Positions 20,571 through 51,365 of a DNA stretch of 64,000 nucleotides are shown in pieces. A program made the translations under genes and the position numbers. Origin of the DNA: Patescibacteria group bacterium (GTDB taxonomy: Bacteria; Patescibacteriota; Minisyncoccia; Phycocordibacterales; PALSA-1337); NCBI GenBank assembly GCA_018971685.1, contig JAGXAG010000006.1, positions 62-64,061 of the forward strand, read 5' to 3'. A model generated the notes under the pieces. That model worked only from the letters and a program-made list of their open reading frames with translations, did no database searches and was not told the origin of the DNA. How positions within the stretch are numbered: position 1 is the stretch's first letter; each line of letters opens with the position of its first letter.

Positions 20571-22838
20571 ATGAATGCCATGCCCAAAAAAGCCCCGAAA
20601 GAGGCGGTAGAACGCCTAAATAAGCTCAAAGAGGCGATAGAGAAGCATCGCTACAACTATTATGTGCTAGACCAAACCGAGGTCTCCGACGCGGCATATG
20701 ATTCGCTGGTACATGAATTGGCGGAAATAGAAGCGGAATATCCGGAATTATTCACGCCTGATTCGCCGTCGCAGAGAGTCGGCGGCGAGCCGTTGCCGGG
20801 ATTCAAGAAGGTCAGGCACGAAGTGCCGCAATGGTCTTTCAACGACGCTTTCACGCCCGAGGAGATGCGCGATTTCGACGCGCGCGTCAAGCGATTCTTG
20901 GCGCAGGCGGGCGCCAAGGGAAGCGGCGAAGACGCGGGCGCGCCAAGGCCTTCGTACACCTGCGAGCACAAGATCGACGGGCTAAAGATCGTGCTTACTT
21001 ACGAAAACGGAATTTTGAAACAAGCGGCGACCCGGGGCGACGGCACCGTCGGCGAAGATGTGACGGAAAATGTTAAGACGATCAGGTCGGTGCCGTTGCG
21101 GCTCCGTGAACCGATTTCGATGATCGTCGAGGGCGAAGCCTGGATAGCGAAGAGCACGCTCGAATCCTTAAATAAAACGCGGATTGAAAACAGCTTGGAG
21201 CCGTTCGCGAACCCGCGGAATCTGGCGGCGGGATCGATCCGGCAGTTGGATCCGAAGGTGGCGGCTGAGCGTAGACTGGACTCCTTTATTTACGAGATGG
21301 CGACGCCGGCCTCTCCCTCCTCGCCGCGACGAAGTGTCTCACATCCGGCTTCGTCTCGTTCGACACTTGCCGCCGGCTCGACGGTCGAGGCCGGCTTCCC
21401 GCGGACGCAATGTGAAGAATTGGAATTTTTGCGCCGCATGGGATTCAAGGTCAATAAAAACTTCGAGCATTGCAAAGACATCGATGAAGTAATCGCGTAC
21501 TGGGAAAAATGGCGCGGCAAAATGAAAGATCAGGACTACTGGGCGGACGGGATCGTGGTGAAAGTGGATGAACGGAAATATCAAGAGGCGCTGGGCTATA
21601 CCGGCAAGGCGCCGCGATGGGGCATAGCGTTCAAATATCCCGGCGAAGAAGTCACGACCGTCTTGGAAGACATCGTCTTCCAAGTCGGCCGGATGGGCAC
21701 GATCACGCCGGTGGCGGTATTGAAGCCGGTTTCAGTCGGCGGTTCGACGGTTTCAAGGGCGACTCTGCACAATGAAGATGAAATCAAGCGACTGGATGTG
21801 CGTATCGGCGACACGGTCGTATTGCGCAAAGCCGGCGATGTTATCCCGGACATCGTGTCGGTGGTGAAAGAGCTCCGGGTGGCGTCGAGCAAACCGTTCG
21901 TCTGGCCTTCGCGGGTGGCGGCTTGCGGCGGCGACGGCAAGATCGAGCGCGTGCCGGGCGAAGCGGCTTGGCGGTGCGCCGACCGCAATTCATTCGAGCA
22001 ACAAAAAAGAAAACTTTATTATTTCACTTCGAAACACTGCTTCGACATCGACGGCATGGGGCCGAAGGTGATCGATTTGCTCTTGGAGCACGGCCTTATC
22101 TCTTCGCCGGCGGACATTTTCACCTTGAAGAAAGGCGATTTGGAGAATTTGCCGCGCATGGGAACAAAGTCGGCCGATAATTTGATGCGGGCTATCGAGA
22201 AAGCGCGCACGGTTACTTTGCCGCGATTCATCGCTTCGCTCTCTATTCCGCAAGTCGGCGAAGAGACGGCGTATGATCTTGCGCGACATTTCAGTGCCAC
22301 TACATCCCCGTCCGTTGTGGAGGACCTTCGGGACACGCCGTCGGCGCCTGCTGGCGCCGCGGCTGGCTCTCGGCCGCCTTCGCGACCTCCGAGGCGTCCC
22401 TCAGGTCTCTCCACGACGGACAGGGCGACTATCCTGTTGCGTGAAATGTTTGCAGCAGGTGTCGATGATTTTGAGAAAATCAATGGAGTCGGGCCGAAAG
22501 TTGCGCAGTCAATAGTCAGTTGGTTTGGAAATCAGGACAATCGCCGATTGGTCCACAGATTATTGAAGCTTGTGACGATCGAAATCGAGAAAGAAATAAC
22601 AGGATCGGCAAACTCACTCGCCGGCAAATCGTTCGTCTTTACCGGCACATTGCCGACTCTGCAAAGGGAAGAGGCGCAAAACATGGTGCGCCGAAACGGC
22701 GGCAGTGTTTCGAACTCGGTTTCCAAGAAAACTTCGTTTCTGGTCGCCGGCGCCGACGCCGGTTCGAAATTGGACAAAGCGCGCGAATCGGGCGTCAAGG
22801 TTATTTCCGAAGATGAATTCTTGAAAATGATAGGATAA
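20571..22838 (+). CDS. ligA: NAD-dependent DNA ligase with two in-frame palindromic insertions
   Basis: EHKIDG, TRGDG..GEDVT, FANPRN, DGIVVK, HhH motifs, BRCT (GKSFVFTGTL). Confidence 0.97.
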   Translation: MNAMPKKAPKEAVERLNKLKEAIEKHRYNYYVLDQTEVSDAAYDSLVHELAEIEAEYPELFTPDSPSQRVGGEPLPGFKKVRHEVPQWSFNDAFTPEEMRDFDARVKRFLAQAGAKGSGEDAGAPRPSYTCEHKIDGLKIVLTYENGILKQAATRGDGTVGEDVTENVKTIRSVPLRLREPISMIVEGEAWIAKSTLESLNKTRIENSLEPFANPRNLAAGSIRQLDPKVAAERRLDSFIYEMATPASPSSPRRSVSHPASSRSTLAAGSTVEAGFPRTQCEELEFLRRMGFKVNKNFEHCKDIDEVIAYWEKWRGKMKDQDYWADGIVVKVDERKYQEALGYTGKAPRWGIAFKYPGEEVTTVLEDIVFQVGRMGTITPVAVLKPVSVGGSTVSRATLHNEDEIKRLDVRIGDTVVLRKAGDVIPDIVSVVKELRVASSKPFVWPSRVAACGGDGKIERVPGEAAWRCADRNSFEQQKRKLYYFTSKHCFDIDGMGPKVIDLLLEHGLISSPADIFTLKKGDLENLPRMGTKSADNLMRAIEKARTVTLPRFIASLSIPQVGEETAYDLARHFSATTSPSVVEDLRDTPSAPAGAAAGSRPPSRPPRRPSGLSTTDRATILLREMFAAGVDDFEKINGVGPKVAQSIVSWFGNQDNRRLVHRLLKLVTIEIEKEITGSANSLAGKSFVFTGTLPTLQREEAQNMVRRNGGSVSNSVSKKTSFLVAGADAGSKLDKARESGVKVISEDEFLKMIG
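21305..21395 (+). repeat. Palindromic element family A, copy 1 (in frame in ligA)
   Basis: Ends GCCGGCCTC/GAGGCCGGC; the 81-nt core is 76/81 identical to the 23159-23247 copy. Confidence 0.9.
22306..22425. repeat. Palindromic element family B (120 bp, in frame in ligA)
   Basis: CCCCGTCCGTTGTGGAG pairs with CTCCACGACGGACAGGG; nested GACCT/AGGTC and GGGAC/GTCCC. Confidence 0.85.
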
Positions 22839-23158: not shown

Positions 23159-23247
23159 GCCGCCTCGACCGTCGAGCCGGCGACAAGTGTCGAACGAGGC
23201 GAAGCCGAATGTGAGACGCTTCGTCGCGCCGAGGAGGGAGAGGTGGC
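23159..23247 (-). repeat. Palindromic element family A, copy 2 (intergenic gatC-gatA, inverted)
   Basis: Its reverse complement matches the ligA 21310-21390 insert. Confidence 0.9.
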
Positions 23248-23277
23248 GGTCGAATTACCCAAGTTGAATTAATTAAA

Positions 23278-28474: not shown

Positions 28475-28477
28475 TTT

Positions 28478-28504
28478 GTCATTCCCGCGAAAGCGGGAAT
28501 CCAG
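28478..28504 (+). repeat. dRS3/RPE-like short palindrome
   Basis: GTCATTCCCGCGAAAGCGGGAATCCAG (ATTCCC-N8-GGGAAT). Confidence 0.8.
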
Positions 28505-30240: not shown

Positions 30241-32037
30241 ATGGCAATACGCGCCCTAAAGAATCACCACAAGTATATCTTCGTGATCGGCGGAGTGATG
30301 TCGGGCGTGGGCAAAGGCATAGCGACATCATCGATCGGCACGCTGCTTACCGCGAAAGGGTATCGCGTCAATCTGGTCAAAGTCGATCCATACTTGAATG
30401 TTGACGCCGGTACCATGAATCCCACCGAGCACGGCGAGGTTTTCGTATTGAATTCCGGATTGGAGACCGACCAGGATATGGGCAATTACGAAAGATTCCT
30501 CGGCAGGGATTTGACGGCGGACGATTATATTACGAGCGGCATGGTCTATAAGCATGTCATAGAGAAAGAGCGCGCTTTGGAGTTCGGCGGCAAATGCGTG
30601 GAGGCGATCCCGCATATCCGCGATGAAATAGTGCACCGGTTCGAACATTCCGCCAAAGTCAATAAGTCTGACATTTCGATCATCGAGATCGGCGGCACGA
30701 TCGGCGATTACCAGAATGTCATGTTTATCGAAGCCGCGAGGGTGCTTAAGATGCGCCATCCGAACGATGTTTTGTTCATTATGGTTTCGTATCTGCCGAC
30801 GCCGGGCAAACTGGGTGAAATGAAATCGCGGCCGACCCAGAACGCCGCGCGCCAGCTGGCGGGTTACGGCATCAATACCGATTTTATCATCGCGCGCGCG
30901 GAAAGCCCACTCGACCATAAGAGGAAGGAGAAAATCGCGGTCTCTTGCAATATTCCGTGCGAGCGGGTGATATCGGCGCCGGACATAGAGAGCATTTACG
31001 ATGTGCCGGCGAATTTCGAGAAAGATAAGCTCGGCATCTTGCTTCTGGACGCGCTCGGCCTGAAATCAAAAAAGCCGGACAAATCATTCGAGGCTTGGAA
31101 AAGAATGGCGCGGGGGATCAAGAACCATTCGAACCGTGAGGTGAATATTGCGATCGTGGGAAAATATTTCAATACCGGAGATTTTATTTTGTCGGATGCA
31201 TACCTGTCTGTGCTGGAGGCGATCAAATTCTCGGCCTATGAGGCCGGAGTGAAAGCGGTTATCCATACGGTGAATTCGAGGGACTTCGAGGGAAATGATG
31301 TCGGGAGGCCTCTCCCTCCTCGGCGCGACGAAGTGTCTCACATTCGATCCGCCCATCCGACACCCGTTGCCGCCTCGACGGGAGAGGCGCAGGCAGCCGG
31401 TTTCGAGGTACTCGATAAGTATGACGGCATTATAGTGCCGGGCGGATTCGGCGAGTCGGGAATTGAAGGCAAATTGAATGTGATCAAGTACGCACGCGAG
31501 AACAAAATACCGTATTTTGGACTGTGTTACGGCATGCAGCTCATGACTATAGAATATGCCAGGAATGTTTTGGGCCTGAATGAGGCGCATACGGCGGAAA
31601 TAAACCCACGAAGCCCCCATCTTATCATAGATATCATGCCGGACCAGAAGAAAAAACTGGCGGAAGGCAATTACGGCGGATCGATGCGTCTGGGATTGTA
31701 TCCGGCAAAATTGGCGAAAGATACGATCGCGCAAGAAGCGTATTCATATTTCCAAGGCAAGCGGTTGCCGAAGCCGACGGCAATGATCAAAGAGCGGCAC
31801 AGGCATCGTTATGAAGTCAATCCCAAGTACATCGAAAGGCTGGAGAAAGGCGGCTTAGTATTCTCGGGCTGTTCACCTGACGGCCGTTTGATGGAGATCG
31901 CTGAATTACCGCGCGAAGTCCACCCGTTTTTCCTGGGCACGCAATTTCATCCCGAATTTTTGGCGCGGCCTTTGCAACCGCATCCGCTATTCACCGCGTT
32001 TGTAAAAGCGGCAAAGGTCAGGCTCGGCGGCCGATGA
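30241..32037 (+). CDS. pyrG: CTP synthase with an in-frame palindromic insertion
   Basis: GGVMSGVGKG, DPYLNVDAGTM, VPGGFG, GLCYGMQ, ERHRHRYE, QFHPEF. Confidence 0.97.
   Translation: MAIRALKNHHKYIFVIGGVMSGVGKGIATSSIGTLLTAKGYRVNLVKVDPYLNVDAGTMNPTEHGEVFVLNSGLETDQDMGNYERFLGRDLTADDYITSGMVYKHVIEKERALEFGGKCVEAIPHIRDEIVHRFEHSAKVNKSDISIIEIGGTIGDYQNVMFIEAARVLKMRHPNDVLFIMVSYLPTPGKLGEMKSRPTQNAARQLAGYGINTDFIIARAESPLDHKRKEKIAVSCNIPCERVISAPDIESIYDVPANFEKDKLGILLLDALGLKSKKPDKSFEAWKRMARGIKNHSNREVNIAIVGKYFNTGDFILSDAYLSVLEAIKFSAYEAGVKAVIHTVNSRDFEGNDVGRPLPPRRDEVSHIRSAHPTPVAASTGEAQAAGFEVLDKYDGIIVPGGFGESGIEGKLNVIKYARENKIPYFGLCYGMQLMTIEYARNVLGLNEAHTAEINPRSPHLIIDIMPDQKKKLAEGNYGGSMRLGLYPAKLAKDTIAQEAYSYFQGKRLPKPTAMIKERHRHRYEVNPKYIERLEKGGLVFSGCSPDGRLMEIAELPREVHPFFLGTQFHPEFLARPLQPHPLFTAFVKAAKVRLGGR
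31308..31388 (+). repeat. Palindromic element family A, copy 3 (81 bp, in frame in pyrG)
   Basis: Ends GCCTCTCCC/GGGAGAGGC; the first 38 nt are 37/38 identical to the gatC-gatA copy. Confidence 0.88.
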
Positions 32038-49343: not shown

Positions 49344-51365
49344 ATGAACCCCGCCCAAATACGCAATTTCTCTATTATCGCGCACATAGACCACGGCAAG
49401 TCCACCTTGGCCGACCGGATGTTGGAGTTGACCGGCACCATAGAGAAGCGCAAAATGCAGGCGCAGGTGTTGGATTCCATGGAATTGGAGCGTGAGCGCG
49501 GCATAACCATCAAACTCCAGCCGGTCAGGATGAAATGGTCATTGAAAGAGACCATCGCCGGCGCGCCCGCGGGCGAGTATGTGTTGAATCTAATAGACAC
49601 GCCCGGACACATCGATTTTTCCTATGAAGTATCCAGGTCGCTCAAAGCCGTCGAAGGATCCATCTTGCTCGTCGACGCCACCCAAGGCGTCCAGGCTCAG
49701 ACCCTAACCACCCTCAATATGGCGCGCGAGGCCGGCCTGGTCATCATTCCCGTCGTTTCCAAGATCGATTCGCCGCTGGCGCAGATCGAAGAGACCGTCA
49801 AAGAGATCAGTCAGCTTTTGGGTTGCCATGAATCCGAAGTCATCAAAGTTTCCGGCAAAACCGGCGAGGGCGTCGAACATTTACTCGACAAAATTATTAG
49901 TAAAATCCCGCCGCCATCCTGTGCCAGCCCCGCCCGAAACAAAGGAAGTTTCGCGAGCTCCGCGACTCTGCCGCGAAGCAATCCGTCGTTGCGTTTCCCG
50001 GACGGCAAGGGCGTGCATGTCCGAGAGCCATTGCCGGCCGCGGAAACGCCGACGGTTGCGAGCGGCATTCGCGGAGCTCGCGAAACTTCCTTTGTTTCGG
50101 GCGGGGCGACTGAATCTTTTTCGGCCGCCGAATCATTCAAGGAACCATTCCGGTCCCTCGTTTTTGACTTCCAATACTCCAACCACACCGGCATGATCGT
50201 CTATGTCCGCGTGTTCGACGGACAAGTCCGCAAACATGACAAATTGCAGTTCAAAATAGCCGGCAAAACATTCGAGGCCATCGAAGCAGGAATATTCGCT
50301 CCCCAGGAAACCCCCGTCGAATACATTGGCGCCGGCGAGATCGGCTATATCGTGACCGGCATCAAGGAGCCTGGCATTGCTTCCGTCGGCGATACCGTAG
50401 CCTCGATCAGAGACAATCAGCCGCCGCTATCCGGTTACCAAAGTCCAAAACCCGTTGTCTGGGCGTCGATCTATCCCGAAAGCCAAGACAATTTGCCCCT
50501 TTTGCGCCAAGCCCTCGCGCGCTTGCGCCTGTCCGATGCCGCTTTTACTTATGAAGAGGAGGCGTCCGGCACGCTCGGCAAAGGGTACCGATCAGGGTTC
50601 CTCGGCATGTTGCACCTGGAAATAGTCACCGAGCGCTTACGCCGCGAATACAACCTTGAACTGGTCGTTACCATGCCAACCATCATTTATTCCGTCAGAT
50701 TGAAAAACGACAAAGAGACCAAAATTTATTCGCCGGCGCTGTTCCCCGACGATCACGATATCATGTCTGTGAGCGAACCGGTCGTAACCATGAAGATAAT
50801 CACTCCACCGCCATATATCGGCGGATTGATGAAGTCAATTTATGACCACGAGGGCGAGATCGTCTCTACCGATAACTTCGGCGATAGCCGTACGATATTG
50901 GCCTTGAATATGCCGCTACGCGAGCTGATGCGCAACTTCTTCGACGAAGTCAAGAGCGTTTCTTCCGGTTACGCGTCGATTTCTTACGACATAACCGGCG
51001 CGAGGCAAGCCGATGTCACCAGGCTGGATATTTTGGTTGCCGACGAACCCGTGCCGGCTTTTGCCAGGGTTGTATCCAGGAGAAGAGTGCAAGAAGAGGC
51101 GGAATCTGCCGTCGAAAGGTTGCACAAACTGCTGCCACGCGAATTGTTCACTTTCAAAATCCAAGCCAAGGCCCACGGTCGTATCCTGGCTTCGCGCACC
51201 CTTTCCGGCATGAAAAAGGACGCCGCCGGTACGCTCTCCGGCGGCGATATCACCCGCAAGATGAAATTGCGCGAAAAACAAAAAGAAGGCCGCAAACGGC
51301 TGAAGGCGCGCGGCAAAGTGGCGATAGCGCAGGATGTTTTCGTGAAGATGATGCGCGCCGATTAG
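49344..51365 (+). CDS. lepA: Elongation factor 4 with an in-frame palindromic insertion
   Basis: IRNFSIIAHIDHGKSTLADR, DTPGH.DF, GFLGMLHLEI, GGDITRKMKL. Confidence 0.97.
   Translation: MNPAQIRNFSIIAHIDHGKSTLADRMLELTGTIEKRKMQAQVLDSMELERERGITIKLQPVRMKWSLKETIAGAPAGEYVLNLIDTPGHIDFSYEVSRSLKAVEGSILLVDATQGVQAQTLTTLNMAREAGLVIIPVVSKIDSPLAQIEETVKEISQLLGCHESEVIKVSGKTGEGVEHLLDKIISKIPPPSCASPARNKGSFASSATLPRSNPSLRFPDGKGVHVREPLPAAETPTVASGIRGARETSFVSGGATESFSAAESFKEPFRSLVFDFQYSNHTGMIVYVRVFDGQVRKHDKLQFKIAGKTFEAIEAGIFAPQETPVEYIGAGEIGYIVTGIKEPGIASVGDTVASIRDNQPPLSGYQSPKPVVWASIYPESQDNLPLLRQALARLRLSDAAFTYEEEASGTLGKGYRSGFLGMLHLEIVTERLRREYNLELVVTMPTIIYSVRLKNDKETKIYSPALFPDDHDIMSVSEPVVTMKIITPPPYIGGLMKSIYDHEGEIVSTDNFGDSRTILALNMPLRELMRNFFDEVKSVSSGYASISYDITGARQADVTRLDILVADEPVPAFARVVSRRRVQEEAESAVERLHKLLPRELFTFKIQAKAHGRILASRTLSGMKKDAAGTLSGGDITRKMKLREKQKEGRKRLKARGKVAIAQDVFVKMMRAD
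49927..50107. repeat. Palindromic element family C (181 bp, perfect 39-bp terminal IR, in frame in lepA)
   Basis: 49927-49965 is the exact reverse complement of 50069-50107. Confidence 0.95.

Follow-up and report, generated by a model that had tools for sequence, protein, structure and literature searches.

The lepA gene at 49344..51365 (+ strand) of the window, a term used here for the whole analysed stretch of 64,000 nucleotides, raises the question of what a 181-nt hairpin with perfectly paired arms is doing inside an open reading frame, and how it came to be there. The source genome, G000, comprises 750,657 bases in 14 contigs and its completeness is rated at 100%. The 673-codon frame is assigned to lepA (elongation factor 4) by its top matches among solved structures, which are EF4/LepA (E 3e-161), and it remains free of stop codons through the hairpin before continuing into domain II. 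An extra stop-free segment of about 70 aa between the G domain and domain II had been pointed out in a preliminary description of this DNA, and both the relatives and a structural alignment bear it out. This linker (49920..50141, + strand, residues 193-266) exceeds that of the shortest relatives by about 70 aa, the distance between fixed anchors being 105 aa in G000 and 35-37 aa in those relatives, and residues 189 and 194 of Thermus EF4 (5imq) align with residues 192 and 267 of the G000 protein. About 60 of the ~70 extra residues come from the hairpin, while about 29 of the 210 extra linker bases fall outside it. Besides, LepA of the G000 group carries KDAAGTLSGGD in the C-terminal domain (window ~51215-51260) and SKID as G4 motif, where the bacterial consensus is KDVLAKCYGGD and NKID, respectively; both variants are common in relatives.

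The linker is a permissive place. Its length ranges from 35 to 105 aa over 97 distinct LepA sequences, which, together with the 5imq alignment, identifies the insertion site as an inter-domain linker of the length-tolerant, exposed type. Eight of the ten other long LepA linkers (at least 147 nt) fold as hairpins at z -2.5 or below, and none of the ten matches the lepA hairpin by BLASTN. In near relatives, the same linkers of lepA and of two further genes discussed below, polA and a helicase gene, are occupied by unrelated hairpins. The closest LepA shares 83% identity over the whole protein, and the data hold no empty lepA allele among close strains. Since none of the other long linkers matches and polA uses the other strand of its copy, the insert is neither ancestral nor conserved at the protein level, and the LepA linker appears, from these sequences, to accept inserts repeatedly. 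As separate observations, the LepA linker of the relative G021 (L049/L082) is filled, in frame, by a short palindromic repeat that has an exact 29-base match at window positions 28476-28504 and may resemble RPE-4/dRS3-type repeats, and another GC-rich repeat with three copies in the window (21301-21391, 23162-23252, and 31307-31346) is related to the insert of the L005 LepA linker.

The hairpin itself (49927..50107, + strand) was delimited by arm search, folding, and frame check. It has a GC content of 66% and all six of its frames are open. As first described, its arms are perfect: the left arm (49927..49965) and its exact reverse complement, the right arm (50069..50107), are 100% complementary over 39 nt with a spacing of 103 nt, and such an arm pair within 300 nt is expected by chance about 6e-17 times in 64 kb. 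The 241-nt stretch around the element folds as a single rod at -157.3 kcal/mol, compared to -92.8 +/- 4.65 for 200 shuffles (z -13.9), none of which folds as well, and the interior stems named in the preliminary description are all present in the computed fold. A promoter scan gave no hit, and two terminator-like matches were found where 1.1 would be expected by chance. In the Rfam scan, the lepA copy gave sub-threshold generic hairpin matches and none at the gathering score, and eight loci from eight relatives gave no match.

Could the hairpin be an artefact in which a read or an assembly folded back on itself? Such hairpins do break short-read assemblies, as the division of one copy between the ends of two contigs attests (see below), and contig depth is lower in the interior than in the flanks, a measure that cannot rank the parts of a gene. 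Against this, short-read contigs from five runs (X1-X5) tile the lepA flank, arm, and interior with zero differing letters in every run that contains lepA. In four of the five runs, at 95%, the arm is collapsed into one 39-nt piece, which is what a true inverted repeat gives in such assemblies, and no joint bypasses the hairpin. In addition, the interior is imperfect and conserved within a family, and the frame continues into domain II. We thus give practically no credence to a fold-back artefact, a danger of which the preliminary description had warned. The five runs possibly represent the very samples from which the genome was obtained, and X3 and X4 appear to be a single data set deposited twice, so that they establish that the sequence is real but not that it is widespread. 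Another run, X8, contained distant relatives only and gave no cover on the insert. Short-read contigs cannot fix the orientation of the hairpin interior.

The idea of a mobile repeat implied other copies, and BLASTN located the interior at four more places in G000 (gene names other than lepA are our reading of translated open reading frames). One complete copy lies in a gene for a Pif1-like helicase (C11:138325-138495) in the same frame as in lepA, another, also complete and in frame, in polA (C11:29922-30094) on the strand opposite to the lepA reading, and a third in the homologous linker of typA, where it is split over the ends of contigs C1 and C5 and has one base less than the lepA copy. 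The fourth (C3:8224-8393) lies between genes and has diverged; it is rich in AT, keeps its stems by compensation, and has the same tip. A dispersed palindromic repeat of 100-200 nt is therefore present in frame in unrelated genes, complete in lepA, polA, and the helicase gene, and split in typA. The interiors differ at 3 of 102 positions between lepA and typA (97% identity) and at 4 of 103 between the helicase gene and polA (96% identity), whereas the arms outside their inner 11 nt share 14 of 25 and 9 of 23 positions, respectively. The perfect arms of the four in-gene copies (39, 36, 34, and 29-35 bp) are alike only in these inner 11 nt, the outer part being mostly copy-specific. The complete in-gene hairpins measure 181, 173, and 171 nt, not all multiples of three, and the encoded peptide differs between copies, which suggests selection on the fold and the frame, not on the residues. 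These complete copies have a GC content of 62-66% and 4-6 open frames out of six, compared to a mean GC of 47% and 72 open frames out of 318 in the 53 remaining full-length copies.

Other hairpins of this genome deserve mention in their own right. The whole of G000 holds 24 inverted-repeat pairs with perfect outer arms of at least 16 bp and a span of 90-260 nt, eight of them within long open reading frames, and several of its hairpin families share one plan, a conserved core on a variable perfect stem. A second family, with two copies and a similar tip word, lies at C3:48779-48951 and C7:7696-7854; its C3 copy sits between a dihydrofolate reductase-like gene and rplK, a gap that in the relative G087 is occupied by a lepA-family copy (L134). 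The preliminary description had held the lepA hairpin to be unrelated to a repeat called family A. This stands as far as BLASTN and both covariance models (see below) are concerned, but three other G000 hairpins, two of them taken as family A, have the outer-loop words of the lepA family's intergenic copies.

Beyond G000, BLASTN of the lepA element gave no match in 92 other genomes of the genus, and relatives of the element are detectable by covariance models only. Model R1, built from four copies, finds the family in 15 of the 92 genomes, and model R2, built from 54 of 67 matches, in 26, with up to 13 matches per genome and 135 matches outside G000, a few of which are fragments or both-strand duplicates. 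The remaining 66 genomes, many of them incomplete, have no R2 match. On a LepA tree of 46 rows, many of whose branches are weak, the carriers occur at scattered places. Outside the genus, R2 had no match in a sample of 149 genomes of the order. Neighbouring genera (20 genomes, four of them of the same taxonomic family) gave a single weak match (E 0.0025), discarded for its lack of the hairpin anatomy, and a weak match with this E value, in L008, lies outside the linker. The tip pattern gave three single matches in 400 genomes of the order, none within a hairpin, and in at least 120 metagenome and 71 viral stretches, a loose symmetry filter retained 5 of 191 loci, all of them rejected since none had the family fold. 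A two-part pattern was absent from the metagenome contigs, and the box pattern from the viral contigs and from 400 other genomes of the phylum. Among the Patescibacteria genomes searched, the hairpin family is thus restricted to one genus.

The 56 full-length copies have a median length of 171 nt and a median arm of 30 bp, and share one anatomy. From the outside, a variable perfect arm is followed by an internal loop, CGAGGA facing CCGCAG, and then by a stem. Further inward come a GAA/GA loop and a near-invariant box, CATTTTCCAAA paired to TTTGTGAAAATG around one bulged base, and, innermost, a variable stem that carries one of two tips. In lepA, the R2 match covers 49953..50081 (+ strand; 81.7 bits, this copy having been in the training set). 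Within it, fold and alignments place the purine-rich GAA loop at 49975..49977, facing GA at 50060-50061, and the 5' half of the box, the most conserved element, at 49991..49998, pairing with 50042-50049 next to a bulged base at 50041 (helix 5). The conserved tip loop GTGCATGTCCGAGA (50013..50026) is common to copies in G014, G016, G069, G085, and G087. The great length of the lepA arm is partly due to the outermost loop, which has closed into perfect pairing in the in-gene copies of G000. Double-sided changes occur in 27 of the 32 pairs, a level reached by none of 500 shuffles, and slid controls give 0.07-0.12 compared to 0.55, figures to be read knowing that the structure was drawn from the same alignment and that the copies are kin. 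Isolated core mismatches, counted once per genome, are G-T in 22 cases and A-C in 3, and folding favours the + strand in 12 of 13 genomes when computed as RNA and in 13 of 13 as DNA; here again, p-values are overstated as the copies are kin. As a side observation from alignment A3, the tip-II loop of some genomes is complementary over 8-9 bases to the 5' strand of the outer loop, and an alternative fold may be possible.

The arms behave in the opposite way to the core. Within genomes, their identity is 0.51-0.80 (0.47-0.56 when shuffled), compared to 0.85-0.95 for the cores, and nevertheless 1571 of 1615 arm positions are Watson-Crick pairs, a share that is partly circular since arms are delimited by their own pairing. 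In G093, G067, G069, and G000, the arms barely exceed shuffled identity, whereas G066, G018, and G014 show a clear likeness between the arms of copies at unrelated sites (0.70-0.80 versus 0.52-0.56 shuffled); across genomes, the arm pattern is loose, with a T-tract by the core and a C-rich stretch. Perfect arms had been taken in the preliminary description to suggest a recent insertion or selection on the RNA structure. The former is not supported, as arms are near-perfect in diverged copies genus-wide and their perfection does not date the insertion. Template switching during DNA replication is described, in the portions of the literature consulted, as homogenising arms, inverting spacers, and creating perfect stems (PMC8604942, PMC8794818, PMC7202029). 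In one G086 copy, the outer-loop module is inverted between normal arms and a normal core, and spacer inversion in quasi-palindromes is given as a known outcome of template switching in the cited part of PMC8604942. Searches for MutS and SbcD gave no match in G000. From E. coli genetics, the absence of these proteins is permissive for hairpins, and a genome in which neither is detected would be permissive to them. Two further observations concern the arms: copies L504, L506, and L507 of G089 are nested, with a second outer-loop-like module farther out in the arm, as if stems grew in rounds, and a hairpin at L554:4870-5000 (G093 C34), with perfect arms of ~39 bp and a short unrelated interior, adjoins a family copy with a similar arm start, so that arms may be shared between cores.

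As to position, the three complete in-gene copies of G000 are the only ones among the first 67 matches to lie inside long open reading frames, and none of 64 copies from 10 relatives, an overlapping set, does so. Among these 64, 22 are in sense and 19 in antisense orientation between co-directional genes, 11 lie between divergent and 8 between convergent genes, and 4 are at contig edges; copy orientation thus shows no bias with respect to transcription (22 versus 19). Many copies lie within 40 nt of a stop codon. Both flanking genes are shared by only five cross-genome pairs of these copies, where a rough estimate gives about three by chance, and in the same-neighbour pairs that could be displayed the arms or cores differ, which indicates that most sites are independent. 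Two filled/empty comparisons are available: a G085 copy faces a single base between the same genes of G087, whose DNA is 82% identical, and a G093 copy faces about 20 bases in G067. Neither empty site contains the element or any arm-like sequence. A third candidate comparison, G024 with G005, was too diverged and rearranged to be read. The absence of a target-site duplication, already remarked upon at lepA, extends to the whole family: 56 copies show no excess over 500 shuffles at 2, 3, 4, or 5 nt, direct repeats of at least 3 nt occur at the ends of 3 of the 56 copies where 7.2 are expected, and there is none at the G085/G087 site.

The transposase with matching ends envisaged in the preliminary description did not emerge: no linked enzyme was found among the Y1, IS110, reverse transcriptase, and tyrosine recombinase families, to which the search was confined. 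None of 31 Y1-transposase loci (30 of 63 matches listed, plus that of G000) holds a family copy. Y1 genes are present in 11 of 15 R1 carriers and 37 of 77 other genomes (p 0.09), and are missing from carriers with 4-7 copies. IS110 was absent from five genomes, and crude nuclease motif patterns gave nothing within 3.6 kb of the copies at 60 loci. The lagging-strand bias that a single-stranded-DNA transposase might give was not seen (19 versus 28, p 0.24, crude GC3 skew). Three genes of G000 were set aside as partners: the Y1/RAYT-like gene (C11:87085-87879), flanked by unrelated short ACCGGTCGGACCGGT palindromes that recur in the genome; the reverse transcriptase (C11:128019-132721), whose gene layout resembles a diversity-generating retroelement; and a non-Xer recombinase, whose island holds no family copy. 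At C11:128019-132721, the reverse transcriptase is accompanied by a four-helix-bundle-like gene, and the end of the upstream gene recurs as a template-like repeat. Possible resemblances to an integron attC site, a hairpin ribozyme, a retron, a kink-turn, and a DnaA box in the 3' box were likewise set aside.

Several explanations compete for these data. The hairpin could serve the host, as a structured RNA or single-stranded DNA signal under selection copy by copy (for instance a site of RNase III processing or mRNA decay, or a rod bound by a protein) that would tune expression in lepA. The strong covariation, the G-T bias on one strand, the constant overall length, and the frequent proximity to stop codons all fit such a role. 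Moreover, RNase III is present in G000, which makes cutting of the lepA message possible, and a precedent exists in Neisseria, where MITE-bearing transcripts are cut by RNase III according to the cited part of PMC10969869. A host signal is nonetheless unlikely, given that orientation is random with respect to transcription, the polA copy being reversed, that 66 of the 92 genus genomes, many incomplete, have no match, that positions mostly differ between genomes, and that no Rfam family matches at threshold. RNase III, the core-gene location, and a 39-bp stem joining both ends would equally suit an intron-like or bypassed segment, lost from the RNA so that a LepA of normal length is made. Yet stop codons, abundant in the intergenic copies, are absent from the host frame of all three complete in-gene copies, a contrast indicative of selection for read-through. 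In addition, the lengths of these three copies do not all divide by three, no match to an intron or ribozyme family was obtained, and the in-frame stop that ribosomal bypassing features is lacking. An intron-like or bypassed segment is accordingly very unlikely.

The remaining alternatives bear on how the element moves. A classical MITE, mobilised by a DDE transposase binding its terminal inverted repeats, would agree with the size, terminal inverted repeat, stable stem-loop, and absence of coding capacity given in the consulted parts of PMC10969869 and PMC3184786. The first reading of the locus as MITE-like was right in that the element is inserted, repeated, hairpin-forming, and in frame, but not as regards its ends: the terminal repeats differ between copies, the arms being the least conserved part, end direct repeats do not exceed shuffles, and no long copy enclosing a gene occurs among the matches examined. 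The classical MITE reading is therefore largely refuted and, in our view, extremely improbable. Alternatively, host sequence next to the target could be copied in inverted form during insertion and so yield the outer arms, the inner module alone being mobile. In favour of this, the outer end of the lepA right arm and the next bases resemble the end of an unrelated G085 linker hairpin (~16 of 24 bases, by eye), the polA arms of G000 and G069 have a 9-base word in common around unrelated cores, and in four genomes, as noted above, arms barely rise above shuffled identity. The empty sites of both filled/empty comparisons are devoid of arm-like sequence, however, and the arms are alike at unrelated sites in G066, G018, and G014 and follow a loose pattern across genomes, so that wholly host-derived arms seem quite unlikely. 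The origin could also be mixed, with an element-borne inner part and a host-derived rim, and part of the outer arm may be host sequence.

Taken together, these data make it probable that the lepA hairpin, one copy of a genus-restricted family of ~170-nt elements, is a selfish, non-autonomous arrival tolerated as a translated linker extension, with arms kept perfect by DNA template switching. The family with its anatomy, its scattered positions, the two filled/empty sites, the four in-frame copies of G000 (one split), and the tolerance of the site are observed, while we infer the steps of spread, in-gene survival, and arm upkeep, as follows. Working on one folded strand (single-stranded DNA or RNA), an enzyme would read the inner loops together with the bulged box and the tip, and would copy the unit into new sites without target duplication. 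Most copies would persist only between genes, whereas a GC-rich, nearly stop-free sub-lineage would persist inside the lepA, typA, polA, and helicase linkers of G000, survival in genes acting as a filter on stop-free copies; in lepA, judging from the open frame, the hairpin is likely translated as a tolerated extra loop. One arm would repeatedly be re-templated from the other during replication, in a genome without a MutS or SbcD match, so that arms drift fast yet stay paired.

The best-known palindromic repeats of this in-frame kind are those of Rickettsia and Wolbachia. The best reading is that the lepA family would work like the Rickettsia palindromic elements (RPEs), with which it is compared by description (PMC10969869, PMC3767692, PMC3184786). 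RPE-1 to RPE-3 and the Wolbachia palindromic elements are, in the cited parts of PMC3767692 and PMC10969869, 100-150-bp hairpin repeats found between genes and in frame in open reading frames, at solvent-exposed regions, in small-genome, host-dependent bacteria. The consulted part of PMC3767692 adds that Rickettsia orthologues can bear different repeat groups at one site, just as unrelated hairpins occupy the same linker in relatives here. RPEs nonetheless belong to another phylum and are described as encoding a conserved peptide, whereas in the lepA family the peptide varies, both strands are used, and a copy-specific outer stem surrounds a conserved looped core. REP/REPIN elements with RAYT (Y1 HUH) transposases are likewise non-autonomous hairpins and are comparable in size; they fold as single-stranded DNA or RNA and lie mostly between genes, with occasional copies inside replication and repair genes, according to the portions used of PMC8049555 and PMC3733652. 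They differ in having conserved inverted REP arms and a diverse spacer, where the lepA family has a conserved centre and diverse arms; no GTAG/CGTC end tag was found on lepA-family copies, and the RAYT system has its repeat flanking the transposase gene, as opposed to none of the 31 Y1 loci here. Prokaryotic MITEs (Correia, ERIC, QMITE, Nezha) resemble the family in being under 500 bp, with inverted ends, a stable stem-loop, no transposase gene, and a location near gene ends, and the lepA family is indeed short and non-coding with such ends and stem-loop, but has no conserved terminal repeats, no target-site duplication, and no cognate IS among the families searched. The lepA family thus fails two REPIN features and two defining MITE features. 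Template switching at quasi-palindromes, as presented in the parts cited of PMC8604942, PMC8794818, and PMC7202029, explains the perfect, fast-changing stems and the inverted G086 module; it is, however, a mutational process and not a mobile element, and leaves unexplained the sparing of loops, bulge, and tip and the arrival at new sites. In the coding palindromes of horsehair-worm mitochondria, the arms encode conserved protein according to the consulted part of PMC6649704, unlike those of the lepA family. No description of such repeats in Patescibacteria was found in the literature searched, most subscription journals and the original RPE papers being outside that search.

A bolder reading, which we regard as doubtful, is that the family represents a mobile element of a new class. 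The unit recognised would be a rod-shaped fold of a single strand in which internal loops, bulged box, and tip are fixed; it would sit on a ~30-bp stem whose sequence is replaced with each move or shortly afterwards, and its spread would involve neither recognition of terminal repeats nor duplication of the target. The enzyme would be one not yet tied to any repeat, and the family would be one of several feeding new peptide loops into Patescibacteria core proteins.

As regards the wider meaning of these findings, perfect arms taken alone are no sign of recent insertion or of RNA function, and, in genomes of Patescibacteria, hairpins of this kind disrupt short-read assembly within genes and add to the length of proteins. 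The family offers a tractable case of in-frame palindromic repeats in another phylum, with intergenic copies across the genus, a GC-rich sub-lineage in four core genes of one species, and both filled and empty sites. Finally, its anatomy is the opposite of that of MITEs and REPINs, the looped centre being conserved and the perfect stem variable, and, in showing which bases an enzyme would read, it makes the question of mobilisation testable.
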